From: Holosporales bacterium
GTDB lineage: Bacteria; Pseudomonadota; Alphaproteobacteria; Paracaedibacterales; CANFPP01
Reading direction: 5' to 3'
Assembly: GCA_947449005.1 (NCBI GenBank)
Contig: CANFPP010000001.1
Location: 8,442-72,441, forward strand
DNA length: 64,000 nt
Numbering within the stretch: position 1 is the first letter of the stretch; every line of letters begins with the position of its first letter. The notes under the pieces were generated by a model. The model worked only from the letters and a program-made list of their open reading frames with translations. It was not told the origin of the DNA and ran no database searches. The translations under genes were made by a program, and so were the position numbers. This document shows positions 5,195 to 30,192 of this stretch, one piece after another.

Positions 5195-6519
5195 TGAAAA
5201 CACGTGCAATGAATTTACGTCAAAAAAGCAAAACTCTGCTCGGTATTTTAGCCTCTTTACTTTTAAGTAGCTGCGATACCTTTCAAGAAAAAGATCCACT
5301 TCCAGGAACGAGAGAGTCTATTATCGTTCTTGATGAAGCGCTACAACCAGATCCTGTATTGCTTCACCAAAAGGTTGTTATTGGCGCTGCAGTGAAGAAT
5401 AAAGATTGGCCACAAGTTGGTGGATCCGCTTCTCACGTTATGCCACCACTTGCTTTAGGTCAGGATCTTAAGGTCGTTTTACAAAAGAACATAGGCCTTG
5501 GATCCAATGAGGGGCAAAAACTAATCTCTGGCCCTATCGTTGTTAATGGCTGTGTTTATGCTATGGATGCAGGGGGTATTGTCAACGCAATTGATATCCA
5601 GAAACAAGAAATCCTTTGGACACAAACAACTGCTACAGAGAATGAACCAGCTGATGCTTTGGGCGGAGGTCTTGCCTTTGAAGAGGGAATGCTTTACGCA
5701 ACGACTTCATTTGGAGAAGTTATTGCTCTTCATCCAAAAGATGGAAAAATTATCTGGCGCAAATCTATTGGGACCCCTATTCGCTCCGCTCCTACGGTAA
5801 AGGACGGTCGAATCTATACAGTTACGATTAATAACGAACTTCATACTTTGAGCACAAAAACTGGTGAATCTCTTTGGATGCATTCAGGTATTACGGAGCC
5901 TGCTATTTTACTAGGGGGATCAAATCCTGCGGTAACGAGCAATGCAGTTGTAGTCACGTATTCATCGGGTGAAATCTATGCACTTCATGTTGAAAATGGT
6001 CATCCCCTGTGGTCAGATATTTTAACGTCGGCGTTGCGGGTTGACTCTGTTACGAGTATCCCTCACATTCGCGCACGTCCGATTATAGATGGAAATTTCG
6101 TTTACGTTATTAGCCATGGCGGACGCATGACAGCAATTGATATGCAAACAGGCATTCGAGCTTGGCAAAAAGATGTTGGCGGAACGCGCACGCCTGCGGT
6201 GATTGGTGATTCAATCTTCGTTCTAACGAATCAAGGCGATGTTATGTGCTTGAAAAAGGATACAGGACAGGTTCACTGGGCTGCAGCACTGCCTAAGCTT
6301 AGCGAAGAGAAAGAGCCGATCTTTTGGGCTGGGCCTGTTGTTGCTGGAGATGCTCTGCTTTTCACAAGTTCCAAGGGAGAAGTAAAATTCTTATCTCCTC
6401 AGGATGGCAAAACTTTAAAATCTTTAAAGTTTGAAGGAAGCAGCTATTTATCTGCAGTTATCGCAGATTCAACTCTATTTGTTTTAACGGATAATGCCGA
6501 TCTTATCGCATGGCGTTAA
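5194..6519 (+). CDS. bamB: Outer-membrane assembly lipoprotein BamB (PQQ-like beta-propeller)
   Basis: Lipobox LLLSSC. Repeated G.vyA.d..tG...W blades. Start overlaps the upstream stop (ATAATG). Sits upstream of der. Confidence 0.78.
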   Translation: MKTRAMNLRQKSKTLLGILASLLLSSCDTFQEKDPLPGTRESIIVLDEALQPDPVLLHQKVVIGAAVKNKDWPQVGGSASHVMPPLALGQDLKVVLQKNIGLGSNEGQKLISGPIVVNGCVYAMDAGGIVNAIDIQKQEILWTQTTATENEPADALGGGLAFEEGMLYATTSFGEVIALHPKDGKIIWRKSIGTPIRSAPTVKDGRIYTVTINNELHTLSTKTGESLWMHSGITEPAILLGGSNPAVTSNAVVVTYSSGEIYALHVENGHPLWSDILTSALRVDSVTSIPHIRARPIIDGNFVYVISHGGRMTAIDMQTGIRAWQKDVGGTRTPAVIGDSIFVLTNQGDVMCLKKDTGQVHWAAALPKLSEEKEPIFWAGPVVAGDALLFTSSKGEVKFLSPQDGKTLKSLKFEGSSYLSAVIADSTLFVLTDNADLIAWR

Positions 6520-6539
6520 TCTTTTTTGGTGTAAAGTAA

Positions 6540-7934
6540 GTGACCATTTCCTCATCTTTTACTGTAGCTCTTGTCGGGCGTCCAAATGTTGGGAAATCAA
6601 CACTTTTTAACCGATTAACTAAAAAATGTTTAGCCTTGGTGCACGAAACCCCCGGGCTAACGCGTGATCGCCGTGAAGGCGACGCGGAGCTTTACGGCCT
6701 TAACTTTACGGTTATTGATACACCTGGTTTGATTGATCCCGATACAACCTCTGCAGCGCCAGAACTGGCAGAAGGCATGAAAGAACAGACGTTGGCTGCA
6801 ATTAGGCAAGCAAATGTTGTTGTGTTTGTGGTTGATGGCAGAGAAGGCTGTACGCCTTATGACACTGATTTGGCTAATCTTTTGCGCAAACAAAAAAAGC
6901 CACTCATTGTTGTTGCCAACAAGTGTGAAGGAAAGCATGGATACCATGGTATTGCGGATGCTCTCGCGTTAGGCCTTGGAGATGTCACGGCTATTTCTGC
7001 TGAGCATGGCGAAGGCTTAGTTGATCTTCACGAGATGCTGATTGCTCATCTTCCAGAAAGCTTAAAAAAAGCTATGCAAGAAGAAGATGATGAAGATAAA
7101 GCATGGGATCGGCCATTGCATTTGGCAATTATGGGCCGTCCGAATGTTGGAAAATCAAGCATAATCAATAAAATACTTGGTGAAGAGAGACAATTAACGG
7201 CAGACATGCCTGGCGTCACGCGTGACTCTATTACAATCAAATGGGAATATGAAGGACGGCAGTTTAATCTTGTTGATACGGCAGGAATTCGTCGTCAAAG
7301 CCGTGTTGATAAACGAGATTTAGAGAAACTTGCGGTTATGGATGCTGAGCGGACTCTGAAGTATGCCGAAGTTGTCGTTTTGGTTGTTGATGGAACTGTG
7401 CCACTTAGTCAACAATTTGAAAAGCAAGATTTAAGCCTAGCAAGTGACGTCATTAAAGAAGGACGCGGCTTGATTATCGCCGTTAATAAATGGGATCTCG
7501 TTAAAGAAAAAACAGCTCTTTTGAAACACTTACAGCAAGAACTTGATTTGCATTTAACGCAGGCTAAGGGTGTGACTTGCCTTCCTATTTCAGCTGAGAC
7601 AGGATTTAATTTACCAAAACTTCTTGATGAAGTTTTAAGAGTTGAAAGAACCTGGAATAAAAGGCTGACGACGGGCGAGTTAAACCGTTGGTTGGAATAT
7701 ACAGTTACTGCTCATCCACCACCAATCTCGTGCGGTAGACGCATTCGTATTAAATATATTACGCAGATAAAAAGTCGACCGCCGACTTTCATTGCTTTTT
7801 GCTCAAAATCAGCCGATGTGCCGGATTCTTATCGCCGTTATTTGATTAATAATTTGCGTCAAGATTTCAAGCTGCCGGGCATTCCGATTCGCCTTACTTT
7901 CCGTAGCAGTGAAAATCCTTATAAGAAGAAGTAG
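6540..7934 (+). CDS. der: GTPase Der (EngA), double G-domain
   Basis: GTG start. Two P-loops GRPNVGKS (aa 13 and about 199), DTPG/DTAG and NKCE/NKWD motifs, KH-like C-terminus. Confidence 0.95.
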   Translation: MTISSSFTVALVGRPNVGKSTLFNRLTKKCLALVHETPGLTRDRREGDAELYGLNFTVIDTPGLIDPDTTSAAPELAEGMKEQTLAAIRQANVVVFVVDGREGCTPYDTDLANLLRKQKKPLIVVANKCEGKHGYHGIADALALGLGDVTAISAEHGEGLVDLHEMLIAHLPESLKKAMQEEDDEDKAWDRPLHLAIMGRPNVGKSSIINKILGEERQLTADMPGVTRDSITIKWEYEGRQFNLVDTAGIRRQSRVDKRDLEKLAVMDAERTLKYAEVVVLVVDGTVPLSQQFEKQDLSLASDVIKEGRGLIIAVNKWDLVKEKTALLKHLQQELDLHLTQAKGVTCLPISAETGFNLPKLLDEVLRVERTWNKRLTTGELNRWLEYTVTAHPPPISCGRRIRIKYITQIKSRPPTFIAFCSKSADVPDSYRRYLINNLRQDFKLPGIPIRLTFRSSENPYKKK

Positions 7935-7948
7935 ATACTCAATTTTCT

Positions 7949-7974
7949 TACAGTCATCCCCAGAGATGACTGTA
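7949..7974 (+). terminator. Hairpin after der (no U-tract)
   Basis: TACAGTCATC-cccaga-GATGACTGTA, a 10-bp perfect stem. Confidence 0.35.
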
Positions 7975-8063
7975 GAGGGCTACTTGTCATGACACTTGGT
8001 CAAAAAAAAACCCTCATTACATACATTTGGCTTATGTAATCAGAAATATTATCTTTATTATTC

Positions 8064-8092
8064 TTGAAATTAATTACATAAATTACTATATG
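8064..8092 (+). promoter_or_regulatory. Conserved promoter of the IQ/helical-repeat paralog family (copy 1)
   Basis: TTGAAA, 17-nt spacer, TATATG. The same architecture and flanks (ATCTTTATTATTCTTGAAATTA..., ...AATAAAAGAATAA before the ATG) recur at 11780-11808 and 15244-15272. Confidence 0.5.
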
Positions 8093-8131
8093 TGTAAAAT
8101 ACCCCAAATTAATTAAAGAATAACGTTCTTC

Positions 8132-9994
8132 ATGAAAAAATCTTCAGTAAAGCTAACTTTAACATTATTGATGCTGGGCTTAATGTGCACCAGTCTTAAT
8201 GCATCAACGTTATCTTCTGAGGAAGCTGCCACTATAATTCAAAGAAAAGTAAGGCTTTATTTTGATAGAAATATAGATAGAAAACTCAGTAAAATGGACG
8301 GTGAATTTTCTAAAGAAGAAATTGATATTACTGCTTTAAGTAAACTGGTGTGTGCTAGGCTTCTTTTCTTAGTATATCCTAGCATTCAAGATGGAAGCAG
8401 AGCTATCCGATTTTGCAAAAAAGGACTTTTAAATCATCCCGTCTTCAGATTTCTCGGCTTAGATTATTTGGCTACTATTTACAGTTCTAATTCAGTTCAT
8501 AAAAATTTACCAGAAGCGGCTGAATGCTACCTGGAGCTTGTGGAGTTGTATGCGGACCAGCCATTAGAGCAACTCAAAGTATTAGTAGCGTTATTGAATC
8601 TTTATAAAACTGAAGGTGATGATGATCAAACAAAAACAAAGAGCATTATTCAAAGAATTGTAGAAATGCAAATCAGTGATTCGACTGAATATTTAGAAGC
8701 TCTTCAATCATCGTCTCAACTTTTAACTGATGGAAGCGATAAAATTAAAGACATCGGAAGAGCAATACAAATTCAAGAAAGACTTCGTGAACACAGCGAA
8801 TACAAGTTATCAAGTTTGCAAAAACTATCTAGTATTTACGAACATAATCCGGATCATAAAAATCCAGAAAAATTGGTTGAATGCTACCTTGAGTTTATGG
8901 AGTTGTATGCGGACCAGCCATTAGAGCAACTCAAAGTATTAGTGAGTTTATTGAAACTCTATAACACTGAAGGAGAGACATTTAATCCAGAAGAAGCGAA
9001 TAATATTGTTCAAAGAATATTAGAAATGCAAGCTCACGAAGGACTTCGTGGAAATAATGAGTTCAAGCTACCAAGCTTACAACAATTATCTTATATTTAT
9101 GAACATGATCCGGTTCATAAGAATCCAGAAAAATTAGCTGAATGCTACCTGGAGCTTGTGGAGTTGTATGCGGGCCAGCCGTTAGAACAACTAAACATAT
9201 TAGCGCGTTTATTGAAGCTCTATATAGCTGAAGAAGCGGCATTTAATACTGAAGAAGCAAAGGCTAGAGCTCATATAATCTTGATAGATTTCGCTGCAGA
9301 TCCGACTCCATCTTTGAAAGCGCAGGTTGCCTTATCAGACTTATATTTCCTTCATTCAGACCTTTCAACACCTGAAGAAATAATACGTATAAATACGAAA
9401 ATTGTTGAGAGAGCCTCAGAATTAGAAGCGGGATCATCGGATTTGATTAATGCTCATCGACGTTTAATAGAAGTCTATAAAGCACAGCAAGATATTGAAG
9501 CAGAAAGAACAACATACCTGAGTTTATTCAATTATTGTGAAAATGCCTCTATAGCGACTGAGTGTTATCATGAGCTTGTAAAGGCAGACCAACCGTTAAT
9601 GAAACTCAATATATTAGCGCGTTTATTGAAGATTTATATAGCTAAAGAAGCGGCATTTAATACTGAAGAAGAAAAAACGACGGCTCAAGGTTTTTTGAAT
9701 TCTTTAACTGTAGATCCGACTGCATATTTGGAAACGCAGGTTGCTTTATCAGATTTATATTACCTTCATCCAGACCTTTCAACTTCTGAAGAGATAATTC
9801 GTATAAATACAGAGATTAACCGCCATGAGGAGTTAAAAGCAGGATCACAAGCCGTGATTAATGCACATAAACGTCTAATAATGGCCCATAATAAAAAAAT
9901 ACAAAAAATATACATAAGTCTGATCAAACGTTGCGGATCAGATAATAGGGCTCCTATTCTTCAAGAATACAATAAGTTCATTAAAAACAAATAA
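8132..9994 (+). CDS. Secreted IQ-motif / alpha-helical (TPR-like) repeat protein, paralog 1 (620 aa)
   Basis: Signal peptide ...LMLGLMCTSLNA/S. IQ-like IIQRKVRLYFDR at 8237-8269. Repeated module of about 120 aa (AECYLELVELYADQPLEQLKVLV.LL.LY.TEG...). C-terminal cap is shared with paralog 4. Confidence 0.8.
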   Translation: MKKSSVKLTLTLLMLGLMCTSLNASTLSSEEAATIIQRKVRLYFDRNIDRKLSKMDGEFSKEEIDITALSKLVCARLLFLVYPSIQDGSRAIRFCKKGLLNHPVFRFLGLDYLATIYSSNSVHKNLPEAAECYLELVELYADQPLEQLKVLVALLNLYKTEGDDDQTKTKSIIQRIVEMQISDSTEYLEALQSSSQLLTDGSDKIKDIGRAIQIQERLREHSEYKLSSLQKLSSIYEHNPDHKNPEKLVECYLEFMELYADQPLEQLKVLVSLLKLYNTEGETFNPEEANNIVQRILEMQAHEGLRGNNEFKLPSLQQLSYIYEHDPVHKNPEKLAECYLELVELYAGQPLEQLNILARLLKLYIAEEAAFNTEEAKARAHIILIDFAADPTPSLKAQVALSDLYFLHSDLSTPEEIIRINTKIVERASELEAGSSDLINAHRRLIEVYKAQQDIEAERTTYLSLFNYCENASIATECYHELVKADQPLMKLNILARLLKIYIAKEAAFNTEEEKTTAQGFLNSLTVDPTAYLETQVALSDLYYLHPDLSTSEEIIRINTEINRHEELKAGSQAVINAHKRLIMAHNKKIQKIYISLIKRCGSDNRAPILQEYNKFIKNK

Positions 9995-10017
9995 ATAACA
10001 CAGTGTGCAAGCTTTAG

Positions 10018-10163
10018 TAAGAGAACAGTCTGGATCCCCGCCTGCGCGAGGATGACAGGGGGGGGGAAAACGAGCGGAATTCACTCGCACAATTTTTATT
10101 GCTTTCCTCATAATCTTCGCTCTCTCCATCGTCATGCTCGCGAGGGCGGAGATCCAGGTTGTT
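10018..10163. mobile_element. MITE-like palindromic element, family A (full copy)
   Basis: Hairpin-containing terminal inverted repeats AACAGTCTGGATCCCCGCCTGCGCGAGGATGAC ... GTCATGCTCGCGAGGGCGGAGATCCAGGTTGTT. The internal part is homologous to the copy at 30008-30192. No coding capacity. Confidence 0.75.
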
Positions 10164-10324
10164 TATGGTTGAGCAGTTAAAAATGATTTCCTAGAAATCT
10201 TCACACTTTATTGAGTAAAGTTTTATTATTATTAGTGATAACTTTAAGATTGAATTTTCCATTTCTGTTTAATACATTGAATTTCCACCCTTATAAAGGG
10301 TTATTATTATTGAAAGAGAAATGA

Positions 10325-11506
10325 ATGTTTATTAAAAATACTACAATAAAATTAGCTTCAACATTCCTAACACTTAGCTTAATGTGCACATGTCTTCATG
10401 CAGCAGAATTTACTGAAGAGCACCGAGATACAGCCGCTGTTAAAATTCAAAGGCATTATAGAGGTGAAAAAGTCAGGAAACTATTTCAAGAGATTGACAC
10501 AGAAGCAGAGATCATAGCTCAAAATATGCAACAAAATCCTAACTTGGCCAAAGTAGCTTTCACTACTCATATAAAATCATTAGGAGAAAACAGCACTATT
10601 AATGATATTTTGACAGCAGAAGTGTGGTGCCAAATTGCTAGAGATCTAGCGCCAGAAAATGTAGAAGTATTTAACACTTACCTTGAGACATTGAGGATTT
10701 GTGAAGACCCAATTAAACGACAGATTGCCTCACTCATAAAAAGTTTGACCATTCAAAATATAGATAAGAAAAAAGAAGTGCTCCGGGAAATAGAAACTTC
10801 CAATTATCCTGTTTTTAAAAACGCTTACTATGGAATATTGGCTAGAGCTCTTAGGGATTCCAAAGATATAGATCAAGCTCAAGAATATCTAATGAGATTA
10901 TTGGAATTACCTAAGCAGTATCACGTCAGAGCATATAAAAACCTAGCAGATCTTAATACTTCAGATGCTGAGCGAAAATTTTATTTAAGAAGGATTATTA
11001 AAATTGGCAGACCTGAACAAGCAGTAGCAGAAGCCAAATCTGACCTTGAACAAATGGCAAAAAAAAGCCTTGAGCTTGCTGATTCATATGATAATGGATC
11101 CGACTCCAATTTTTACAACCCACAAGAAGCTTTAAGAATATACAGATCCCTTTTAGAGGACCCACAAACACTAAATACCGATGATATTAATTTTCGTATA
11201 GCTTCTATCTTGACTTCTGGTCCAGCTGACGTACAAGACAAAAGTAAAGCCATAGAAATTTATAAGGCAATTCGAAATCGAGAAGGTAATAAAGGTTCTA
11301 GCTATTATTGGAGTGCTGCATACTATCTTATAGATAACTATATAGGTCAAAATCAATATTCTGAAGCACTTGGTCTAGTAACAGAAGATTTAAATGATCC
11401 AGAATGGCAATTTAGTGAGGAATTAAAAACGATTTATCAAAATGGATCAGACGAAATTCGTGAGGCCATTGATAGTTCTGAGGCTTTAAGAAGTAAGCTT
11501 CCCTAG
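10325..11506 (+). CDS. Secreted IQ-motif protein, paralog 2 (393 aa; N-domain-only version)
   Basis: Signal peptide ...LSLMCTCLHA/A. Canonical IQ motif IQRHYRGEKVRKLF (10445-10486). The N-domain is homologous to the N-terminal 330-350 aa of paralogs 3 and 4 (DPIKRQIASLI, SNYPVFKNAYY, FYNPQEALRIYRSLL). Confidence 0.8.
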   Translation: MFIKNTTIKLASTFLTLSLMCTCLHAAEFTEEHRDTAAVKIQRHYRGEKVRKLFQEIDTEAEIIAQNMQQNPNLAKVAFTTHIKSLGENSTINDILTAEVWCQIARDLAPENVEVFNTYLETLRICEDPIKRQIASLIKSLTIQNIDKKKEVLREIETSNYPVFKNAYYGILARALRDSKDIDQAQEYLMRLLELPKQYHVRAYKNLADLNTSDAERKFYLRRIIKIGRPEQAVAEAKSDLEQMAKKSLELADSYDNGSDSNFYNPQEALRIYRSLLEDPQTLNTDDINFRIASILTSGPADVQDKSKAIEIYKAIRNREGNKGSSYYWSAAYYLIDNYIGQNQYSEALGLVTEDLNDPEWQFSEELKTIYQNGSDEIREAIDSSEALRSKLP

Positions 11507-11590
11507 CCAACAGGTGATAGAGGAATCGAATATGGATCAGATAGCGACTAGAGAAACGATACGGATCTACTGATATTTATTCATTCTCTG

Positions 11591-11682
11591 TCGTCATTCC
11601 AGCAAAAGCGGAAATCCACATAAAACACGGATTGCATTAACCTAATTAAGAAACCTGAATCCCCGCCTCCGCGGGGATCACG
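11591..11682. repeat. Two family-A hairpin arms in outward orientation
   Basis: CGTCATTCCAGCAAAAGCGGAAATCCA (11591-11617) and CCTGAATCCCCGCCTCCGCGGGGATCAC (11653-11680). Confidence 0.6.
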
Positions 11683-11779
11683 GTTAAATCCACCATATTT
11701 GCGGGATTGATCTTAAAGCCCTTCATTACGTTATATATATTTAATTTATGTAACGTATGGGAGGTTATCTTTATTATTC

Positions 11780-11808
11780 TTGAAATTATTAATACAAATA
11801 CATATATG
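11780..11808 (+). promoter_or_regulatory. Conserved promoter of the IQ/helical-repeat family (copy 2)
   Basis: TTGAAA, 17-nt spacer, TATATG. Flanks are shared with 8064-8092. Confidence 0.5.
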
Positions 11809-11845
11809 TGTAAAATATCTAAAATTAATAAAAGAATAATATCCT

Positions 11846-14800
11846 ATGAAAATGTCTATAGTCAAAACAACGTCAACGGTATTAATGCTGAGCTTAATAG
11901 GCACCAGCGTTCATGCAGCAACTACATATTTTGATGAAAAGACTACTATTAAGATTCAAAGACTTTATCGTGATAGAAAACTCAACCAAACTTTTGAAAC
12001 GTTAAACCAAACATCAAAAAATATAAAGAGAGGTGTTGTTCCTGCACCTACTGAAGCAGATTTAGAAGAAAGCATCGCATCTTTAAACGAACACAGTGAT
12101 TTTAAAAGCATGGGATTGCCTGCTGTATACTTCATCAACGCAAAGAAGGATTTAGATATCAGACCTTTTATAGAACGTTATCAAGGATATATTCAAAGTC
12201 AAATGGCAAGTCGCGATCCAATCAGGAGACAGATAGCCTCCCTTATCATGGCGGAGCTTGCAACTAAAGCTGCTGCAGAAAATGATAAATTCAATACAGC
12301 GCAGTATTTTTTGCAAGAAGCTATAAGTTCTGACTATCCATTTTTTAAACACAATGCTTATCTACAATTATCTGGGTTGGCTAGAGATTATGCGGATAAA
12401 AACCAAGCCATTAACTGTTTAAGAAAAGGACTAATTTTACCCAACAGATATCATGCTAGCATTTACAGGAAGTTAGCTTACGTTGTTGATTCTGAAGAGT
12501 ACAAACCTTCGCGGGAACGCTACTTGAAGCAGATTATTGAAATTGGAACTCCGACAGAGAAAATAAAAGCACTCATGAGTCTTGCTTATTTGTATGGTCG
12601 CAATCAATCGAATTCAGCATTTTACAGACCAAGCGAAGCTCTAGATATTTATGATTCTCTTTTAGCTAATCCACAGCTGATTTCTTTTTTAGACACAGAT
12701 AATGTTCACATACAAATTGCAATTATTCGTGCGTTTTCTCCTGATGAAGAAATAAAAAACGTAGATAGAGCAGTAGAGATTTTAGATGGTATTCTTTTAA
12801 ATAGACCTAATGACTGGAATTATTCAAATGCTGCAACCCAACTGATAAGTATTTTTATTACAAAAGATCCCGCTAGAGCTTTTAGCTTAGCACGAGAAGC
12901 TTTAAGCAATCCAAATCTTCAACAACCCTTCAAAATATACATAGAAAAAGCATTAGCGGATTTATATAGACATGGTCCGGAAGGAATTAAAAACCCTCAA
13001 GCAGCTTTGCAAATCTTAGAAAATCTAGCGGCTATGACTTTTGGCCCAACTTTTGCTCCCGATTATCATTCAATTGTGCTTTTGTCGCTGACTCATCATT
13101 TGGTGTATGGAGATGCTACAGTTAAAAACGCAGCAAGAGCAATACAGATTCACGAAGAACTTCGTAAAGACAGTAAAGTGAAGCTGGCAGCTTTAATCGA
13201 CTTAGCTCATATTTATCAACATGATGCAGAGCATAAAAATCTATTAAAAGCAATTGAATACTTTGAAGAAATTTTGCTATTGCACGAGGGTAAACCGGTA
13301 GAACAATTCAACACTTTAATCCGTTTATTATCTCTCTATACGACTGAAGGAGAGACACTTAATCTGGAAAAAGCACAAATTATCCAGCAAAGAATTTCAG
13401 AAATGCAACCTATTATTGAATCCAATAATTCGAAGGAAAGTTTCGTGGCCCTTCAAAGCCTGGCTAGTCTTTTGACATTTGGAAACGATAGAGTTAAAGA
13501 CAGAGGAAGAGCAATACAAATCCTCGAAGAACTTTCTAAACACAGAGAATCTAAACTATTAAGCTTACCGATCTTAGTTTATATTTACGAGCATATTGCA
13601 GAGCATAAAAATCCAGTAAAAGTGACTGAATGCCTTAATAAGCTTGTAGAGTTGTATGCTGACAAACCATTAGAGCAACTAAAAGCATTAACAAAATTAT
13701 TGAAGATTTATACAACTGAAGGAACAGCGTTTAGCATTGAAGAAGCGAAGGCTGCTGTTCAAAGAATTTTGACTCATTCCGCTGTCGACGGTACAGCACG
13801 TTTGGAAGTACAAGTTGCTTTATCAAAGCTTTTTCATCTACATCCTGAATCAGGCTCAACCGCAGAAATAATTGATGTAAATAATGAGCTGGCACATAAC
13901 CCTATGGCAACTCCATCGGATGTGGGAGATGCTCATCGTCGTTTGATAGCAGCTTACTTGACACAACGGAGTTTTGAACAAGTTGTTACAACATATGAGC
14001 ATTTTTTAACACGTGCTGTAGATTGGCAACGTACTGGTGTTATCCTAGATTTTATCTCCTTTCTTGAAAATCCAGATCATGCAACTGTACAAAACCCTGC
14101 ACGTGTGACTGAGCTTCGAGCGCTTCTCCCGCAACCTGCAGTATTTATGACAGAAGAACTTGTGCAGTTACCTGGTATTGTTGCTGGATTTGGTGGAGCG
14201 GGTCACGTTGATCCTTATTTTTCACCAGAGATGATTGCAAATAGAAAAGCATCACTGCTTGCATTAAGTGGAGATCATTTTGACCAAGTGAACTATCAAA
14301 CAAACTTAGAAAGAACGATAGCTGAAGTTAAAGAAGCCATTGCACAATATGGTGCACGTGACGCTGAATTTGCTGCTACAGCCGTCGTAGCTACTGAGGT
14401 TTTTGAAACAGGGAATACTCATCCTTATAGCTATCGTCCTACTGTTCAAGATCTTGATTATCAATTTTCCATTGATGATTTGGGCAGGGAGATGGCATAT
14501 GGAGAAGCTTTGGTTCGTATCTGGGCACGCATTACTCACCATCCTGATGTAAATCATTTAAAGGATTTAATAGTGTTGCAACTTGCAGCAGCGATTGATC
14601 CTGATGGCCACATTGTCTGTCCCGTTGGAAAAATAATGCGTCATTTCCAAGCAATGGAAGGTACTTTTCCTGACGTTCGTGCTGTGACATTATCGTTGGA
14701 GAATGCTTTTTCAGGTTTTGCAAAAAATGAGCAAAAACTCATTGATGCACTACCAGGAGAGCATCCTTTAAAAATCCTCGAATCCAAAATTGGAGAAATA

Positions 14801-15037
14801 AGAAAGGCAGCAGAATATAAAGTAAATACTGATACTTGGGTTAGTCCAGAGTACCAAGGAAAATTTGAATTCTTATCGAGCGATGATCAAATCTTGCTAA
14901 AGAATCATTACGAGCAGATGGTTTTGAAATTTGAACAAGATTTATTGAAATCAAGAGATACGCTTTCTGAAACTGAGAAGGCATTTGCGAGGAGAGAAGT
15001 TGGTGAATATCTGAGTGTGACTTGGTTTGTGGGATAG
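11846..15037 (+). CDS. Secreted IQ-motif / helical-repeat protein, paralog 3 (1,063 aa), with a unique C-terminal domain of about 360 aa
   Basis: Signal peptide ...LMLSLIGTSVHA/A. IQ-like IQRLYRDRKLNQTF (11954-11995). Family N-domain plus repeat modules. From about aa 700 (nt about 13943) the sequence is non-repetitive and is absent from the other three paralogs. Confidence 0.8.
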   Translation: MKMSIVKTTSTVLMLSLIGTSVHAATTYFDEKTTIKIQRLYRDRKLNQTFETLNQTSKNIKRGVVPAPTEADLEESIASLNEHSDFKSMGLPAVYFINAKKDLDIRPFIERYQGYIQSQMASRDPIRRQIASLIMAELATKAAAENDKFNTAQYFLQEAISSDYPFFKHNAYLQLSGLARDYADKNQAINCLRKGLILPNRYHASIYRKLAYVVDSEEYKPSRERYLKQIIEIGTPTEKIKALMSLAYLYGRNQSNSAFYRPSEALDIYDSLLANPQLISFLDTDNVHIQIAIIRAFSPDEEIKNVDRAVEILDGILLNRPNDWNYSNAATQLISIFITKDPARAFSLAREALSNPNLQQPFKIYIEKALADLYRHGPEGIKNPQAALQILENLAAMTFGPTFAPDYHSIVLLSLTHHLVYGDATVKNAARAIQIHEELRKDSKVKLAALIDLAHIYQHDAEHKNLLKAIEYFEEILLLHEGKPVEQFNTLIRLLSLYTTEGETLNLEKAQIIQQRISEMQPIIESNNSKESFVALQSLASLLTFGNDRVKDRGRAIQILEELSKHRESKLLSLPILVYIYEHIAEHKNPVKVTECLNKLVELYADKPLEQLKALTKLLKIYTTEGTAFSIEEAKAAVQRILTHSAVDGTARLEVQVALSKLFHLHPESGSTAEIIDVNNELAHNPMATPSDVGDAHRRLIAAYLTQRSFEQVVTTYEHFLTRAVDWQRTGVILDFISFLENPDHATVQNPARVTELRALLPQPAVFMTEELVQLPGIVAGFGGAGHVDPYFSPEMIANRKASLLALSGDHFDQVNYQTNLERTIAEVKEAIAQYGARDAEFAATAVVATEVFETGNTHPYSYRPTVQDLDYQFSIDDLGREMAYGEALVRIWARITHHPDVNHLKDLIVLQLAAAIDPDGHIVCPVGKIMRHFQAMEGTFPDVRAVTLSLENAFSGFAKNEQKLIDALPGEHPLKILESKIGEIRKAAEYKVNTDTWVSPEYQGKFEFLSSDDQILLKNHYEQMVLKFEQDLLKSRDTLSETEKAFARREVGEYLSVTWFVG

Positions 15038-15243
15038 AGATTTACCATTCGTCATTTTTTCAAACATCATCTTGATTGTTGTCTCCCCTCTCTCTGACAT
15101 TCTCACGAGGTGGGGGGATAGAGGGTAGAGATGTGAAAAACAACACTCTCCTTAGCGTGCCCCCAAGATTATCCTGGAGACCTCCCCCACACTGAATTGA
15201 ATGATTAAATAGAATAGAGGGTAAGATTATTACAGTTTCATCC

Positions 15244-15272
15244 TTGAAATCATTTTCACAAGTAATTATATA
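15244..15272 (+). promoter_or_regulatory. Conserved promoter of the IQ/helical-repeat family (copy 3)
   Basis: TTGAAA, 17-nt spacer, TATATA. Followed by ...CTAATAAAAGAATAATATCCCTATG, as in copy 2. Confidence 0.5.
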
Positions 15273-15311
15273 TGTAGAATATTCCAGCCCTAATAAAAGA
15301 ATAATATCCCT

Positions 15312-18300
15312 ATGAAGAAACCTATAATCAAAATCACGTCAACGGTATTAATGCTAAGTTTAATGAGCACTGCTCTTAATGCAGCAACGTCATTTATTAG
15401 GGATGAGGAGAGAGAAGCTGCGGCTTCTAAAATTCAGGTATTTTATTGGGACAAGAAACTACGTAGCTTAGCGGATGAATTATCTACAGAAGCACAGGAG
15501 ATGGGGAAAAGAACTGCGGGTAATCTAGCGTTGATTGCAGAAGAAATGCAAAAAAACATAGATTCGTTAAATAACTCCAATCGTTTTACAAGTACCGCCA
15601 TGCTTATGGGTATATTGCTTTCTAACCTAGAAGGTCTAGATACAGCACCTCTTTTGCAAAAATATCAAGCCTATCTTGAAAGACAAATAGCGAATGGAAG
15701 CTCCATCCAGAAACAACAAGCTTCTCTTATGAAAGTAATTATTAAAAACAAGAAGAGTAATAAAGAGGCTGAATTAAACGAGATGAGAGAGTTATTACAA
15801 GAAACAATGAATTCTCCTTACCCCGTTTTTCGGCTCTATGCTTATCATCTGCTCTTTGATGCGGCTAAAGACTCGGGAGATAAAGAAGCAGCTCTTCACT
15901 ATTTATATAAAGGAATGTTGTCATCTAAAAGAAATCACGCTCGTATTTATGAGGAATTAGCTGATTTTGACAATTCAGAAGATTATAAGCCTAAGAAGGA
16001 ACGCTATTTAAAGAAAATTATTAAAATTGGCACCCCAAAAGAAAAAGCGGAAGCACTCACTAAGCTTATTGTTTTATACGCCAATCAAAACTCAGCATTT
16101 TACAGACCGAGTGATGCTCTAAAACACTATCAAGATCTTATAAGTGATCCACAACTTGTTCGTTTTCTAGGTACAGATAATGATATTCATATACGGATTG
16201 CATGTCTCTTTGCATTTTCTCCTGATGAAACAGTAAAAAACGTAGAGAAAGCAATAGAGACTTTAGACGACATACTGTCAAAAGAACCTAATCACTGGAA
16301 TTATTCATATGCTACAAGTAGTTTGATAAGTATTTACGTTTCAAAAGATCCTGCTAGAGCGCTTAGATTAGCATTAGAAGCTCGAGAAAACCCAAATCTT
16401 CCAGAACCTTTCAAAACCTATATAGAAAGATCATTAGCAGATTTATATAGGGATGGTCCGGAAGGAATTAAAGACCCTCAAGCAGCTTTGCAAATTTTAG
16501 AAAATCTAGCGGCTATGACTTTTGGCCCAGTTTTTGCTTCCGATTATCATTCAAATGTGCTTTTGTCGCTGACTCATCTTTTGGTGTACGGAGATGCTAC
16601 AGTTAAAAACGCAGCAAGAGCAATACAGATTCACGAAGAACATCGCGAGAACGAGGCATTGAAGTCACGAAGACTGGCGGATTTAGCGTATATTTACAAT
16701 TATGATGCAGTTCATAAAAGTCCAGTGAAATTGGCTGAATGCTACCTGGAGCTTATAGAGTTCTATGCGGACCAGCCGTTAGAGAAACTCAAAGTTTTAG
16801 TAAATCTATTGAATCTCTATGACACTGAAGGAGAGACATTTAATCCAGAAGAAGCGAATAGTATTGTTCGAAGAATTTTAGAAATCCAAAGTGGTGATTC
16901 AGTGGAAGCTTTGGAAGCTCTTCAATCATGGGGTCAGCTTTTGACACAGGGGACTATTGTCGTTAAAAACATAGAAAGAACCATTCAATTTTACGAAAGG
17001 GTTCGTAGGCAGAGTGAGTTTAAATTATCAAGCTTACAAAAATTATCTTATATTTACGAACATGATTCAGTTCATAAAAATCCAGTAAAATTAGCCGAAT
17101 GCTATCTGGAACTTATAGAGTTCTATGCAGACCAGCCGTTAGAGAAGCTCAAAGTTTTAGTAAATCTATTGAATCTCTATGACACTGAAGGAGAGACATT
17201 TAATCCAGAAGAAGCGAATAGTATTGTTCGAAGAATTTTAGAAATCCAAAGTGGTGATTCAGTGGAATCCCTAGAAGCTCTTCGAGGATTAATTCAGCTT
17301 TTAGCAGACGGAACTATTGCAGTTAGAAGTGTAGAAAGAAATATTCAGCTTTACGAAGGGCTTCTTGAAAATAGTGAATTCAGGGCATTAAGTTTGAAAA
17401 AGCTTTCTAATATTTACACCACTGATCCAGTCCATAGAAATCGATCAAGAGCACTTGAATATTATCTAGAGCTTGTAGAGCTGTATGCAGATCAACAGAT
17501 AGAGCAACTCAAAGTTTTAGAGAATTTATTAGGTCTCTATGAAACTGAAGGTGATGATGATCAGGAAAAAACGAAGAGTATCATTGAAAATATTTTAGGA
17601 ATGCAATCTAGGAATTCGGTTGAATATCTAGAAACTCTTCAAAGACTTGTTCACAGTTTGATGTATGGAAACGCTAAAATTAGAGATATCGGAAAAGCAA
17701 TACAAATCCTAGAAGAGCTTTGTACGCACACCAATTTCAAAATATTAAATTTAAAGAAATTATCTAGTATTTACGAGTATTATCCTATCCACAGAAATCT
17801 ATCAAAAGCACTTGAATGCCAATTAGAGCTTGTGGAGTTGTATGCAGACCAACCGGTAGAGCAGCTTAAAGTTTTAGTAAACCTATTGAATCTCTATGAC
17901 ACTGAAGGAGAGACATTTAATCAAATCGAAGCGGATAATATTGTTCAAAAAATTATACAAATGCAAACTGGTGATTCAGTGGAAGCTTTGGAAGCTCTTC
18001 AATCATGGGGTCAGCTTTTGACACAGAGTACTATTGTCGTTAAAAATACAGAAAGAACCATTCAATTTTACGAAAGGGTTCGTAGGCAGAGTGAATTTAA
18101 ATTATCAAGCTTACAAAAATTATCTTATATTTACGAACATGATTCAGTTCATAAAAATCCAGTAAAATTAGCCGAATGCTATCTGGAACTTATAGAGTTG
18201 TATGCGGACCGCCGACTAGAACAATTGGATATCTTGGCGCGTTTATTGAAGCTCTATATAGCTGAAGGTATGACATTTAATACTGAAGAAACAAAGGCTA

Positions 18301-19121
18301 ACGCTCACAGAATTTTGACAGATTTACCTGCAGAGCCGGCTCCACTTTTAAATGTGAAAATTGCTTTATCAAACTTATATTACCTTTATCCTGACCTTTC
18401 AACACCTGAGGACATAACCAGTATAAATACGGAAATTCTTAGTCGGTCTTCAGAATTGGAAGCAAACTCATCGGACTTAATTAATGCCCATAAAAGTCTA
18501 ATAGAAAACTATCACAGACAAGGAAATGTTGAAGAAGAAAAAACAACATATCTACGTCTATTCAACAGTTGTGAAAATATTTCTATACTGACTGAATGTT
18601 ATCAACAACTTATAATATTATATGCAGATCAACCCTTAGAGCAACTCAACGTATTAGCACGCTTATTAAAGAGGTATATAACTGGAGAAACGACGTTTAA
18701 TACTGAAGAAGAAAAAGCAAGAGCTCAAGAAATCTTGACCGGTTTGTCTACAGATCAAAATGTTTTAGCCGCGGACCCGACCGCATCTTTGAAAGTACAG
18801 ATTGCTTTATCGGACTTATATTATCTTCATCCTGATCTTTCAACAATTGAGGAAATAACGAGTATAAACACAGAAATAAGTCGTTGTGAAGAATTAGAAC
18901 GAGGATCAGCAGAAGTAATTAATGCTCACCAACGTTTAATAAATATTTACAAAGCACAGCAAGACTTTGTAGCTGTTCGAAAAACATACATAAGTCTCCT
19001 CAAACGCAGTAGAGGAGATAATCAAGCCTCGGCTCTTGCAGAATACAACACCTTCATTAGGGAAAATCTTACGTTAAAAAGCACACTTACAACATCTACA
19101 GAACAGAATTTGGTCTCTTGA
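15312..19121 (+). CDS. Secreted IQ-motif / helical-repeat protein, paralog 4 (1,269 aa)
   Basis: Signal peptide ...LMLSLMSTALNA/A. IQ-like IQVFYWDKKLRSLA (15432-15473). Family N-domain, then roughly six or seven copies of the 120-aa module, two with near-identical DNA. C-terminal cap is homologous to paralog 1. Confidence 0.85.
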   Translation: MKKPIIKITSTVLMLSLMSTALNAATSFIRDEEREAAASKIQVFYWDKKLRSLADELSTEAQEMGKRTAGNLALIAEEMQKNIDSLNNSNRFTSTAMLMGILLSNLEGLDTAPLLQKYQAYLERQIANGSSIQKQQASLMKVIIKNKKSNKEAELNEMRELLQETMNSPYPVFRLYAYHLLFDAAKDSGDKEAALHYLYKGMLSSKRNHARIYEELADFDNSEDYKPKKERYLKKIIKIGTPKEKAEALTKLIVLYANQNSAFYRPSDALKHYQDLISDPQLVRFLGTDNDIHIRIACLFAFSPDETVKNVEKAIETLDDILSKEPNHWNYSYATSSLISIYVSKDPARALRLALEARENPNLPEPFKTYIERSLADLYRDGPEGIKDPQAALQILENLAAMTFGPVFASDYHSNVLLSLTHLLVYGDATVKNAARAIQIHEEHRENEALKSRRLADLAYIYNYDAVHKSPVKLAECYLELIEFYADQPLEKLKVLVNLLNLYDTEGETFNPEEANSIVRRILEIQSGDSVEALEALQSWGQLLTQGTIVVKNIERTIQFYERVRRQSEFKLSSLQKLSYIYEHDSVHKNPVKLAECYLELIEFYADQPLEKLKVLVNLLNLYDTEGETFNPEEANSIVRRILEIQSGDSVESLEALRGLIQLLADGTIAVRSVERNIQLYEGLLENSEFRALSLKKLSNIYTTDPVHRNRSRALEYYLELVELYADQQIEQLKVLENLLGLYETEGDDDQEKTKSIIENILGMQSRNSVEYLETLQRLVHSLMYGNAKIRDIGKAIQILEELCTHTNFKILNLKKLSSIYEYYPIHRNLSKALECQLELVELYADQPVEQLKVLVNLLNLYDTEGETFNQIEADNIVQKIIQMQTGDSVEALEALQSWGQLLTQSTIVVKNTERTIQFYERVRRQSEFKLSSLQKLSYIYEHDSVHKNPVKLAECYLELIELYADRRLEQLDILARLLKLYIAEGMTFNTEETKANAHRILTDLPAEPAPLLNVKIALSNLYYLYPDLSTPEDITSINTEILSRSSELEANSSDLINAHKSLIENYHRQGNVEEEKTTYLRLFNSCENISILTECYQQLIILYADQPLEQLNVLARLLKRYITGETTFNTEEEKARAQEILTGLSTDQNVLAADPTASLKVQIALSDLYYLHPDLSTIEEITSINTEISRCEELERGSAEVINAHQRLINIYKAQQDFVAVRKTYISLLKRSRGDNQASALAEYNTFIRENLTLKSTLTTSTEQNLVS
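16716..18198 (+). repeat. Intragenic 360-bp (120-aa) module repeats with near-identical stretches
   Basis: 16789-16908 is identical by eye to 17149-17268. 16894-17121 is nearly identical to 17971-18198. Confidence 0.8.
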
Positions 19122-19362
19122 TTTCGTAGGCGACAATGATACCTAAATGACAAGCCCAGAGTGATGATTAAATTGCACGATGTCATCATCCTGGGTCTTG
19201 ACACCTCCACAAAGCCCCTCATTTAACTGATGACAGTGATAGAAACAATTCAATCAATAAGATAAGTAATAAAATTGGTTATAAATTGAAATAAACTCTT
19301 GTCATTTAAAATAGAAAGATTATGATCTCGTCTAAATGTAACAATTTACCTTTGAAGAGAAA

Positions 19363-20145
19363 ATGTTCGCTGGAGCTATTGATCATAACAAAACTGAGCA
19401 AATGGTTGAAAGCTTGGGGGAAAGTAGCGATCTGAACGAGCTTAATATAAACATCAAAAAGATTTTTGAATCCTTTGATATAGAGAAATTTTCAATCGCA
19501 GGATACTGCGATAATGAGTTTCAAATTTTTGATACTTATCCCCCCGATTGGATGTCACATTACATTTCAAGCCAATATCATTTCCATGACCCAATCCTCT
19601 CATGGAATAAAATTCGACTCCCTTTTAGCTGGAGCAGCAATAAAATAAAAAATCTAACGCCAACACAGGAGCGTTTATTTTCAGAAGCTCATGATTTTGG
19701 AATTAATACAGGCATAACCTTATCTGTTCCCAGCCAGACTGGGCAAATATTTCTTACACTCTTGGATCATGAAAATCATCATCCTTTCGCACTGTATGCG
19801 CTTTCTTTAGCGGCTCAATCTTATTGGCACTTTACACAAATAACAAAAGCAAAGACTTTATTAAGCTTATTAACAGCGCGTGAACGTGAGATTATTTTTT
19901 TAAAAACAAAAGGATTGGCCATGAAGACCGTGGCCACAACTCTGAACATATCTGAATCAACTGTCGTTTTTCATTTAACAAATATCAAAAAAAAACTAAA
20001 AGTTTCAAATAGTGAACAAGCCCTTTTTCTTATTGGATTAGCAGTTAGCCAGTTACCAGGAAGTAATTTTCAAAACTTAGATAAAGAAAACTTTAATAGT
20101 AATGTTCACCCAGCTGCTCTTCGCTCTTCATTATTATCTTCTTGA
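19363..20145 (+). CDS. luxR: LuxR-family AHL-responsive transcription regulator
   Basis: Autoinducer-binding-domain residues (PPDWMSHYISSQYHFHDPIL...W). C-terminal HTH LTAREREIIFLKTKGLAMKTVATTLNISESTVVFHLTNIKKKL. Confidence 0.85.
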   Translation: MFAGAIDHNKTEQMVESLGESSDLNELNINIKKIFESFDIEKFSIAGYCDNEFQIFDTYPPDWMSHYISSQYHFHDPILSWNKIRLPFSWSSNKIKNLTPTQERLFSEAHDFGINTGITLSVPSQTGQIFLTLLDHENHHPFALYALSLAAQSYWHFTQITKAKTLLSLLTAREREIIFLKTKGLAMKTVATTLNISESTVVFHLTNIKKKLKVSNSEQALFLIGLAVSQLPGSNFQNLDKENFNSNVHPAALRSSLLSS

Positions 20146-20783
20146 GTATATGCGTAGATTGGTTTTACGTAAGATAGGAGAGGCTTTGTAAAATCATAAC
20201 CTAATTGTGCAAGTAGTTTTTCATAGCTTTGCCAAGAAAACACGTAGCTCGTTACCAACAACTGATTTCCATTGAAATTTCTTTCCACAACAGGTTCCCC
20301 AGAATATCCATACCGACTATACAGTTTTTTAAACGCAGGGAATGAAACAACAAGACACATTTTTACATTCTTTAACTCTAAAGAAAAATGTGCATAAGCC
20401 GCAGAAATACTGGCTGTAACGTGGCTGACCATTTGAGGCGTATAATTTTCATCAAAATTGTGATCAACAGCTAGTCTACTTTGTTCCCAGCACCCAACTT
20501 TCTTAAAATTTTCTAAGTTAGGGAGCAGAAACCTAAAGGGACCATCGAACATGCATGGATTTATCATCTCAATAAGACGAATACAACCTCTTACAATCCC
20601 GCGTTCATCTTTATAAATTATGTACGTGGCATGTTTCTCGTCATATTCATCTTTTTCCATACCGTGGTTACTTGTAACATCCCACTTTAGTTTTTCGAAA
20701 AAAACTTTATGCCGTAGACGATACATATTATCAAGGTCGTGCCTATGAAATTCATAATTACTTGGATCAATGAGAATTAGCAT
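20106..20783 (-). CDS. luxI: LuxI-family acyl-homoserine-lactone synthase
   Basis: MYRLRHKVFFEKLKWDV...EKDEYD...ATYIIY...RGCIRL...CWEQSRLAV matches conserved LuxI blocks (R..VF...L.W.V, E.D.YD, WE.SR). Convergent with luxR, and the 3' ends overlap by 40 nt. Confidence 0.85.
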   Translation of the reverse strand: MLILIDPSNYEFHRHDLDNMYRLRHKVFFEKLKWDVTSNHGMEKDEYDEKHATYIIYKDERGIVRGCIRLIEMINPCMFDGPFRFLLPNLENFKKVGCWEQSRLAVDHNFDENYTPQMVSHVTASISAAYAHFSLELKNVKMCLVVSFPAFKKLYSRYGYSGEPVVERNFNGNQLLVTSYVFSWQSYEKLLAQLGYDFTKPLLSYVKPIYAYTQEDNNEERRAAG

Positions 20784-21414: not shown

Positions 21415-21520
21415 GATCCCCGAATCAAGTTCGGGGATGATAAGAATGAAGAGTGGATTCCCGCCTACGCGGGAATGACGATAGGGTGTATCGTCATCCT
21501 GTTTCTTAATATCAGATCTC
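21415..21520. repeat. Cluster of palindromic-element arms (families A and B)
   Basis: GATCCCCGAATCAAGTTCGGGGATGAT, GTGGATTCCCGCCTACGCGGGAATGACG and CGTCATCCTG...CAGATCTC. Confidence 0.6.
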
Positions 21521-30007: not shown

Positions 30008-30192
30008 TAAGAGAACAGCCTGGATCCCCGCCTTCGCGGGGATGACGAGGTGGGAAAACCGAGAAAAATGCACTCGCACATTTTTTGTTATTTTCTTCGC
30101 CATCTTTGTTTTCTCCATTGTCGTCCTTGCTCTCTATTGTTATCCAGCTCCCTCTACCGTCATTCCCGCGCAGGCGGGAATCCAGGCTGTTT
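30008..30192. mobile_element. MITE-like palindromic element, family A (full copy)
   Basis: TIRs AACAGCCTGGATCCCCGCCTTCGCGGGGATGACG ... CGTCATTCCCGCGCAGGCGGGAATCCAGGCTGTT. Shares the left flank AAGAGAACAG and the internal sequence with the 10018-10163 copy. Confidence 0.8.

Follow-up and report, generated by a model that had tools for sequence, protein, structure and literature searches.

A tandem array of four cassette-shuffled, putatively exported alpha-solenoid paralogs in an uncultured alphaproteobacterium

Introduction

Secreted TPR, Sel1, ankyrin and leucine-rich repeat (LRR) proteins are the main route by which amoeba-associated bacteria interact with their hosts, and nearly everything known about them comes from a few cultivable pathogens. 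Here we describe a tandem array of four genes, designated P1 to P4, which lies in a 64,000-nucleotide (nt) stretch of contig CANFPP010000001.1 (positions 8,442 to 72,441; assembly GCA_947449005.1, Holosporales bacterium). This stretch is referred to as the window, and all coordinates count from its first letter. The four predicted products are clearly paralogs that were assembled from shuffled common cassettes.

The Four Paralogs and Their Cassettes

The array consists of four open reading frames (ORFs), with lengths in amino acids (aa):

8132-9994, plus strand: P1, ORF of 620 aa
10325-11506, plus strand: P2, ORF of 393 aa
11846-15037, plus strand: P3, ORF of 1063 aa
15312-19121, plus strand: P4, ORF of 1269 aa

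An earlier reading, made from the letters and an ORF list only (the sequence-only reading), had reported four consecutive plus-strand genes that take up 17% of the window; strand, coordinates and lengths were all reproduced in the ORF list, and the share computes to 17.2%. A fifth copy of the family was sought across the whole 64 kb, and none was found besides P1 to P4.

In an all-against-all blastp comparison, P1 aligns to the C-terminal half of P4 at 57% identity (587 aa) and P3 to its N-terminal half at 49% (669 aa). P2 corresponds to the initial ~390 aa of both P3 and P4, at 31-32% identity along some 400 aa (E 1e-39 to 1e-40). A hidden Markov model (HMM) seeded on the P4 modules identified five complete 120-aa modules and a half-module in P4, two modules in P3 and about three modules plus a half-module in P1, while P2 has none. 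Nine modules can be aligned gap-free, with identities of 35-74%, and their likeness crosses gene borders, as module 1 of P4 is similar to module 1 of P3, module 3 of P4 to module 1 of P1, and module 2 of P4 to both module 2 of P1 and module 5 of P4. Modules 1, 2 and 5 of P4 share 71-74% aa identity and 86-88% nt identity with each other, and Tandem Repeats Finder reports a period of 360 nt with 4.2 copies at 16689-18214. The module count of P4 needs caution, because in three independent assemblies, made from short reads of the same strain, the sequence breaks off or is bridged by a 100-N scaffold gap within these repeats (window positions 16740, 16946 and 17202).

The cassettes are distributed over the four genes as follows:

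8132-8203, plus strand: P1, signal-like peptide (aa 1-24)
8225-8281, plus strand: P1, IQ-like motif (aa 32-50)
8333-9277, plus strand: P1, about three modules (aa 68-382), with no N-domain ahead of them
9239-9934, plus strand: P1, two cap units and a half-module (aa 370-601)
P2, plus strand: signal-like peptide (aa 1-26)
10433-10489, plus strand: P2, IQ motif (aa 37-55)
P2, plus strand: N-domain only (aa ~60-393)
P3, plus strand: signal-like peptide (aa 1-24)
11942-11995, plus strand: P3, IQ-like motif (aa 33-50)
12023-13069, plus strand: P3, N-domain (aa 60-408)
13070-13798, plus strand: P3, two modules (aa 409-651)
13727-14014, plus strand: P3, one cap unit (aa 628-723), followed by a linker
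14216-15034, plus strand: P3, unique C-terminal domain (aa ~791-1063; alignment and AlphaFold model)
14618-14620, plus strand: P3, codon of Cys925 (13-sequence alignment)
P4, plus strand: signal-like peptide (aa 1-24)
15420-15476, plus strand: P4, IQ-like motif (aa 37-55)
15489-16550, plus strand: P4, N-domain (aa 60-413)
16551-18347, plus strand: P4, five modules (aa 414-1012)
18270-19010, plus strand: P4, two cap units and a half-module (aa 987-1233)

The shuffled-cassette build proposed by the sequence-only reading is thus borne out by blastp, the module HMM, the module alignment and a cap HMM. The N-domain that it placed in paralogs 2, 3 and 4 at ~330 aa is there at about 350 aa, and its ~120-aa modules in variable number agree with both the module HMM and the gap-free alignment. 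Its C-terminal cap common to P1 and P4 is present in both, yet consists of two units of ~100 aa with the half-module between them (aa 370-470 and 508-601 in P1; aa 987-1088 and 1127-1233 in P4), and a single unit also occurs in P3 (E 8e-23 with the cap HMM). The ~300-aa C-terminal segment of P3, which is found in no other paralog, had been overlooked.

P2 is a genuine short paralog rather than a truncation, because its orthologs have a similar length (411-416 aa in the related locus L008 and, in L007, a reading frame of 449 aa that is greatly extended at its N-terminus). Upstream of the other three genes, the following elements were noted:

8025-8131 (P1), ~11740-11845 (P3) and ~15205-15311 (P4), plus strand: shared upstream region of about 110 nt, from alignment
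8073-8100, 11789-11816 and 15253-15280, plus strand: promoter-like hexamers, as consensus matches only

P1, P3 and P4 thus share proximal upstream DNA with promoter-like hexamers, and therefore the duplicated unit included its promoter.

The N-Terminal Cassette

Signal peptides were judged by eye and by Kyte-Doolittle hydropathy only. The N-termini of P1 to P4 have a K-containing n-region followed by an uncharged run of 15-22 residues with a maximal 12-residue hydropathy mean of 1.8-2.3 (elsewhere in the analysis counted as 12-15 uncharged residues after K-rich starts, with small residues at -1 and -3), and this run ends in LNA, LHA or VHA ahead of the putative cleavage site. Read in this way, they show the features of a Sec type I signal, namely a charged n-region, an h-region of 10-15 aa, small residues at -3/-1 and no lipobox. 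Lipoproteins were considered and rejected, as an L-x-[GAS]-C lipobox is missing, P3 and P4 have no cysteine in the signal region and the cysteine of P1 and P2 is preceded by Met. The sequence-only reading had called the signal peptides near-identical; signal-like N-termini are indeed present in all four, but they are similar rather than near-identical.

The signal-like peptide is followed by an acidic patch and then by the motif AAxKIQRxYRxxKL. The acidic segment and IQ-like motif had already been seen in the four paralogs, and the motif proved to be positionally fixed across the family, as it begins at residue 32-37 in 18 of the 19 members with an intact N-terminus, including members with only 20-30% identity overall. 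P2 scores 22.6 bits with the Pfam IQ model (PF00612; gathering score 20.3), and the IQ HMM reaches E<0.01 in 2 of 39 family members. 'IQ-like' is the proper label for the motif, because P1, P3 and P4 miss the Pfam threshold. The conserved IQ-like helix at the N-terminus is a candidate site at which calmodulin or another EF-hand protein could dock.

As a separate observation, the window contains a second IQ bearer, an inverse autotransporter with 25.8 bits for Pfam IQ and 62.4 bits for IAT_beta (see below).

Fold and Family Membership

Scans of P1 to P4 with Pfam and NCBIfam returned no model at threshold except for the IQ motif of P2, and the same scans assigned none of the 39 family members to a curated family, the only matches at E<0.01 being weak ones to TPR_14 (6 members), Sel1 (2) and IQ (2). 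Based on five orthologs, AlphaFold models P3 from aa ~100 to 760 as a continuous all-alpha solenoid with a predicted local distance difference test score (pLDDT) of 75-90. Each 120-aa module comprises six helices, i.e., three hairpins of about 40 aa, and the predicted model hence displays the superhelix of tandem alpha/alpha hairpins, each 36-44 aa long, that is expected of Sel1-like repeats. Foldseek against the PDB matched the model to the TPR-type solenoids Ctr9, Ski3, TTC7, OGT and SEL1L, at low template modelling scores (TM-scores) of ~0.2, while a sequence profile search of the PDB matched only designed consensus TPR proteins, and these weakly (E 2e-5). Since a solenoid is predicted and its Foldseek matches are of the TPR type, yet no curated model reaches threshold, the family would belong to the TPR/Sel1-like structural class as a divergent branch that lies outside every curated family.

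The sequence-only reading could name no characterised family beyond a generic TPR-like fold, with which Pfam, NCBIfam, Foldseek and the PDB profile search agree. Foldseek on an AlphaFold model, a check that it had suggested, returned a TPR/Sel1-like solenoid for P3, and the clear HMM match to a housekeeping family that would have spoken against it did not appear in the Pfam and NCBIfam scans.

The C-Terminal Cysteine Domain of P3

The C-terminal domain of P3 is the most unusual part of the array. It is kept in all P3 orthologs, and diverged copies occur elsewhere in other settings, namely joined to bona fide Sel1 repeats (P0041, 77 bits), to proline-rich repeats (P0042) or to DUF7024 (P0043), and as a stand-alone protein (P0026); P0042 and P0043 have signal-like N-termini. 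The conserved core reads GExLxRIWxRIxxH ... DPDGH(I/L)VCxxGKxxRxxQxxEG, and an alignment of 13 sequences contains one nearly invariant residue, Cys925 in P3 numbering, within the second of these blocks. Modelled alone, the domain is mainly helical with two small beta-hairpins (mean pLDDT 81.7), and Cys925 is placed at the N-terminus of a helix. A Foldseek fold search of the PDB gave no match, NEL domains included (best E 1.6), and neither did a sequence search against solved structures. The best fold matches are borderline ones to uncharacterised proteins of giant viruses that infect protists and algae, two of which are annotated as LRR proteins (best E 1e-3, TM-score <=0.43); hits in BFVD are A0A481YWC2, Q196Z9, B5LWL2 and A0A2H4UUS5. 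The domain is a candidate payload, enzymatic or metal-binding in nature, for delivery by the solenoid.

As a side observation on relatives of this domain, the contig of P0042 (L010), a distant carrier of the P3-type C-terminal domain, has two adjacent serpin genes (PF00079) at 5742-8375. Serpins are a eukaryote-like family.

Genomic Neighborhood

The immediate upstream side of the array is formed by a yfgM-like TPR_21 gene, bamB (PQQ_2, 186 bits) and der (two MMR_HSR1 domains and an EngA KH domain). Downstream follow the two genes of a quorum-sensing pair, so that the array indeed sits between der and this pair, as had been noted before:

19363-20145, plus strand: luxR (Autoind_bind and GerE), directly downstream of the array
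20106-20783, minus strand: luxI (Autoind_synth), convergent with luxR

The 3' ends of luxR and luxI overlap by 40 nt. Quorum sensing would be unusual for a putative endosymbiont. Control of the array by the adjacent luxR/luxI pair was considered and rejected: the sole dyad in the shared promoter region, ACACA-N10-TGTGT, has 2 matches (<=1 mismatch) against 1.23 expected, which is not significant, this dyad is absent near luxI and luxR, and the upstream regions of the array genes yielded no lux box. Two further explanations were likewise dismissed. The array does not look like a horizontal transfer island, as its GC content differs only modestly from the rest of the window (36.2% versus 39.3%) and neither an integrase nor a tRNA lies at its borders. 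Pseudogenes or decaying genes are ruled out by the intact ORFs, the conserved orthologs and ratios of nonsynonymous to synonymous substitution rates (dN/dS) <1.

Evolutionary Dynamics

In the syntenic loci L007 and L008, which share about 84% nt identity with the window, a P1-like, a P2-like and a P3 gene are followed directly by luxR/luxI, and the P4 segment (window ~15043-19244) is wholly missing. P4 has ~71% nt identity to P3 in its N-half and ~75% to P1 in its C-half, because of which it either predates the split from L007 and L008 or was imported; the difference is assigned to neither gain nor loss. The adjacency of P3 and luxR is kept in L007 and L008, but not in L004 and L006, where the P3 orthologs stand in other contexts and are not adjacent to bamB and der. 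The P3 ortholog of L006 lies among flagellar genes and is about one module shorter (938 versus 1063 aa).

dN/dS was computed by the Nei-Gojobori method between the window and L008. It amounts to 0.62 for P2 and 0.44 for P3, compared with 0.16 for luxR, 0.08 for luxI and 0.03-0.06 for tgt, vut and rpmB, so that the array genes evolve at 5-15 times the ratio of syntenic housekeeping genes. The C-terminal domain has the lowest ratio of all segments within P3 (0.29).

It was also observed that dS in the N-domain and modules of P3 (against L008 1786-4983) is 0.19-0.22 at high dN, which is about half of that in tgt and vut (0.43-0.46) and in the P3 C-terminal domain (0.50). This low dS could stem from exchange between lineages, by recombination or gene conversion, or from constraints on composition.

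Distribution and Host Organism

The family is extremely rare. P3 has six relatives in a set of 5.8 billion clustered proteins, an exhaustive profile search with HMMER, run over 1.84 billion representatives, returned 42 at E<=1e-3, two of them generic TPR proteins, and a scan of 185,579 species-representative genomes returned one locus. The sequence-only reading had named equally abundant homologs in free-living alphaproteobacteria as an outcome that would count against it; these searches gave no homolog from free-living bacteria, and none of the other outcomes that it had named as refuting was observed. All family members come from metagenomes or metagenome-assembled genomes (MAGs), with 'Alphaproteobacteria bacterium' as the sole organism label, and the window itself matches freshwater metagenome scaffolds and the MAG GCA_964786425.1.

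The nearest named relatives of the Lon protease in the window are those of Ca. Paracaedibacter symbiosus (76%) and Ca. Odyssella (75%). Paracaedibacteraceae are amoeba endosymbionts, and these best named matches are in line with the amoeba-symbiont affinity suggested earlier. The distant family member P0023 lies on a contig (L013) of the same freshwater metagenome project, and this contig also has genes for an ankyrin-repeat protein and a TLC ATP/ADP translocase (15153-15791 and 19047-20435). Such translocases are a hallmark of obligate intracellular bacteria, and the carrier of P0023 would be obligately intracellular because of this pair of genes on its contig. The host of the array is an uncultured alphaproteobacterium related to Paracaedibacteraceae that probably lives as an intracellular symbiont of protists.

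Proposed Function and Alternative Explanations

From their sequences, the four proteins are proposed to be Sec-exported, fast-evolving, protein-binding alpha-solenoid scaffolds that most likely contact host proteins, a reading in which our confidence somewhat outweighs our doubt. Lineage-specific scaffolds, in which each ~120-aa module would form three TPR/Sel1-like helical hairpins, would be exported by Sec and diversified by tandem gene duplication including the promoter, by duplication of the 360-nt module within genes and by recombination between paralogs. Outside the bacterial cytoplasm they would act as protein-binding adaptors, most probably on host proteins, while the IQ-like helix may dock calmodulin or another EF-hand protein and the cysteine domain of P3 may be a payload that the solenoid brings to its target. 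Host contact is favored because of the IQ-like motif (which is also present on the surface-displayed inverse autotransporter), the extreme rarity and fast evolution of the family, and the intracellular affinity of the organism and of other carriers. The analysis shows the paralogy, the cassette map, the predicted solenoid fold, the rarity and fast evolution of the family and the presence or absence of P4 among relatives. We infer export, signal cleavage, an outer-membrane route, a host target, binding to calmodulin and any catalytic activity of the C-terminal domain, and the label 'effector' is circumstantial, being drawn from the IQ-like motif, fast evolution, narrow distribution and the intracellular hallmarks on the contig of a relative.

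Several points weigh against this proposal. Export is read from the sequence alone, a Sec signal by itself leads to the periplasm, and no type II, IV or V secretion system for onward transport was seen in the 64-kb window, whose YfgM-like TPR_21 protein and BamB next to the array hint at a role in the envelope. Among P1 to P4, P2 alone passes the Pfam IQ gathering score, and the motif of P1, P3 and P4 could merely be an N-terminal capping helix. As to the fold, the best Sel1 score in P1 to P4 is 15.4 bits (P4, E 0.028), below the gathering score of 30.7 bits (PF08238), and none of the TPR models (TPR_1 to TPR_19) reaches its gathering score, the best being TPR_14 with 19.0 bits in P2 and 18.7 bits in P4 at a cutoff of 23.5. 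Comparison of the three ~40-aa subrepeats by hhalign is weak as well (probabilities 9%, 1% and 13%, E 0.002-0.06, from very short profiles), the register being consistent for two of the three pairs, a-b and b-c. The raised dN/dS could stem from relaxed constraint rather than host-driven diversification. Finally, Lon matches proteins of Stellaceae MAGs at 73-74%, and Lon is highly conserved; the taxonomic placement, and hence the lifestyle, is approximate because these Stellaceae proteins score nearly as high.

The main rival explanation places the proteins in the periplasm or envelope, as scaffolds with bacterial targets, for instance in peptidoglycan or outer-membrane biogenesis, and not as host-directed proteins. 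A Sec-type N-terminus alone would predict the periplasm, the array lies directly downstream of the yfgM-like gene, bamB and der, and P3 has weak LapB-type NCBIfam matches, although at 25.5 bits they are far under the cutoff of 363. Many bacterial Sel1-like repeat (SLR) and TPR proteins are periplasmic, and precedents for an envelope function are known in LapB, YfgM and BamD, which are TPR proteins, and in EnhC of Legionella, whose binding partner is a lytic transglycosylase. However, housekeeping envelope scaffolds are broadly conserved, in contrast to the few dozen representatives found here, and neither a dN/dS so far above that of the neighboring housekeeping genes nor the dispensability of P4 in relatives fits such a role. 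The conserved IQ-like motif would lack an obvious periplasmic partner, because calmodulin is eukaryotic, and the adjacency to bamB and der is lost in L004 and L006. On balance, we regard the envelope explanation as rather unlikely. The array might instead encode variable surface or secreted antigens or decoys, in which repeat shuffling alters the exposed surface and thereby evades host defence, grazers or phage, as was proposed for the SlrV arrays of Haemophilus (PMC4792463). The module mosaicism between paralogs, the near-identical internal duplications (modules 1, 2 and 5 of P4), the varying copy and module numbers among relatives and the elevated dN/dS would all fit, yet no dN/dS value reaches 1, and even distant members keep the N-terminal cassette, the cap units and the C-terminal domain well conserved, which fits a conserved binding or enzymatic function. 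Moreover, phase-variation tracts were not found, Tandem Repeats Finder giving the 360-nt module repeat only, and we consider antigens or decoys very doubtful.

A further alternative, which is compatible with the scaffold model, concerns P3 and the other carriers of its C-terminal domain: these could be host-activated, cysteine-dependent modifying enzymes targeted by their solenoids, comparable to IpaH with its LRR and NEL domains, while P1, P2 and P4 would be non-catalytic adaptors or regulators. It draws on the nearly invariant Cys925, which is located in DGHxxCxxGKxxRxxQ at the N-terminal end of a helix and has a conserved His upstream, on the strong constraint on this segment relative to the rest of P3, on the linkage of the domain to other repeat or exported contexts (the Sel1 repeats of P0041 and the signal-like N-termini of P0042 and P0043), and on the borderline giant-virus matches, including the two annotated as LRR. 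However, the domain has no structural or sequence match to known enzymes, the viral matches are marginal, P0041 is without the His of the DGH motif, and the cysteine could be structural or metal-binding, so that an enzymatic P3 appears improbable at present. Even less credence is given to the most far-reaching version, according to which the domain would be a new fold and family of cysteine-dependent host-modifying enzyme, shared by exported proteins of uncultured protist symbionts and giant viruses of protists, coupled in P3 to a TPR-like targeting solenoid and a calmodulin-binding IQ switch, and active only in the eukaryotic cytosol.

Other Features of the Window

The window contains further features apart from the array. 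The inverse autotransporter mentioned above is an ORF of 2474 aa with a signal-like peptide, an inverse-autotransporter beta-domain and a huge charged coiled-coil passenger. About 20 near-perfect tandem repeats of 20 aa, KRIADKLIEDARIAKEIEDK, span aa ~625-1020, and two IQ motifs, ATTIQSAWRMKSD, and C-terminal repeats of ~50 aa are also present. The strong AT skew at 32-38 kb is due to this ORF. A GC-rich palindrome of 25 nt, GTCATTCCCGCGnAGGCGGGAATCC, is dispersed over the window with 9 matches against 0.06 expected, mostly as intergenic inverted pairs 100-140 nt apart. It looks like a repetitive extragenic palindromic (REP) or miniature inverted-repeat transposable element (MITE)-like element, and could serve as a recombination substrate or terminator. 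In addition, three ORFs have no NCBIfam match at E<=1e-5, two of which (38088-39572 and 24091-25542) also have no Pfam match at E<=1e-3, and all three may be further lineage-specific proteins.

30597-38021, plus strand: inverse autotransporter ORF, 2474 aa
10032-10056 and 10131-10155: GTCATTCCCGCGnAGGCGGGAATCC pair in the P1-P2 spacer
11593-11617 and 11657-11681: GTCATTCCCGCGnAGGCGGGAATCC pair in the P2-P3 spacer
30022-30046 and 30159-30183: GTCATTCCCGCGnAGGCGGGAATCC pair
21455-21479 and 41247-41271: other listed copies of GTCATTCCCGCGnAGGCGGGAATCC
24091-25542: ORF of 483 aa
38088-39572: ORF of 494 aa
48852-50639: ORF of 595 aa

Significance and Comparison With Known Systems

The locus is a self-contained example, from an uncultured Holosporales-related lineage, of how a repertoire of host-interaction proteins gets built, with promoter-plus-gene duplication, amplification of a 360-nt module, chimeras between paralogs and gene gain or loss between close relatives all visible as steps. 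It offers two testable handles, namely the fixed IQ-like motif behind the signal peptide and the orphan ~300-aa cysteine domain with its possible giant-virus link. If the calmodulin or the enzyme hypothesis is true, the array would represent a new effector module; if neither is, it would be a well-documented but unsurprising lineage-specific expansion of repeat proteins.

Tandem, signal-peptide-bearing and motif-shuffled arrays of Sel1-like repeats are already established in Haemophilus influenzae, where they are known as SlrV or Msf (PMC4792463). As in that system, the paralogs lie in tandem on the same strand, carry signal peptides and have a conserved C-terminus, and repeats per gene and genes per strain vary, the mosaic motifs implying duplication, contraction and shuffling. 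The present array hence shows the defining combination of the SlrV/Msf type (tandem paralogs, signal peptides, variable repeat number and mosaic motifs), in a likeness that is architectural only. No sequence homology is detectable, although none was sought by a direct comparison with SlrV, and the Sel1 threshold of Pfam is not reached. Unlike SlrV/Msf, the proteins described here are much larger (393-1269 aa), their repeat unit is a 120-aa tri-hairpin supermodule, and they have a ~350-aa N-domain, an IQ-like cassette and, in P3, a cysteine domain, in an uncultured alphaproteobacterium.

The Sel1-repeat proteins LpnE, EnhC and LceB of Legionella have signal peptides and bind host proteins, while their export route beyond Sec is unclear (PMC10868440). 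Together with LidL they share a Sec-type signal, an alpha/alpha-hairpin solenoid and a C-terminal capping element with the array, and they come from amoeba-dwelling bacteria whose post-Sec route is as unclear as it is here (PMC10868440). In contrast to the array, which is known from sequence alone, the Legionella proteins are bona fide Pfam Sel1 proteins encoded by dispersed genes, and have neither an IQ-like motif nor a cysteine domain.

The IQ motif of SidJ is C-terminal and sits on a kinase-fold glutamylase that is delivered by a type IV system. In this Legionella effector, it recruits host calmodulin (PMC6858067), and the array resembles SidJ and SdjA in having a short IQ-type helix for which calmodulin would be within reach only in a eukaryotic host, P2 passing the Pfam IQ model (PMC6858067, PMC8546864). 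Unlike in SidJ, the putative calmodulin site of the array is N-terminal, follows directly on a Sec-like signal and belongs to a solenoid without a kinase fold.

The IpaH and SspH effectors combine a repeat domain with a C-terminal, all-helical NEL cysteine ligase. P3 is similar in that an N-terminal repeat solenoid is joined to a mainly helical C-terminal domain of ~300 aa with a single conserved cysteine, but its cysteine stands in a CxxGK context instead of CxD, TPR-like repeats take the place of the LRR and there is no match to the NEL fold, so that the resemblance is an analogy only. The array type as such is hence already known from SlrV/Msf and from LpnE, EnhC and LceB, a point overlooked by the sequence-only reading, whereas the 120-aa tri-hairpin supermodule, the fixed cassette of signal, acidic patch and IQ-like motif, and the orphan cysteine domain are what is unusual here.

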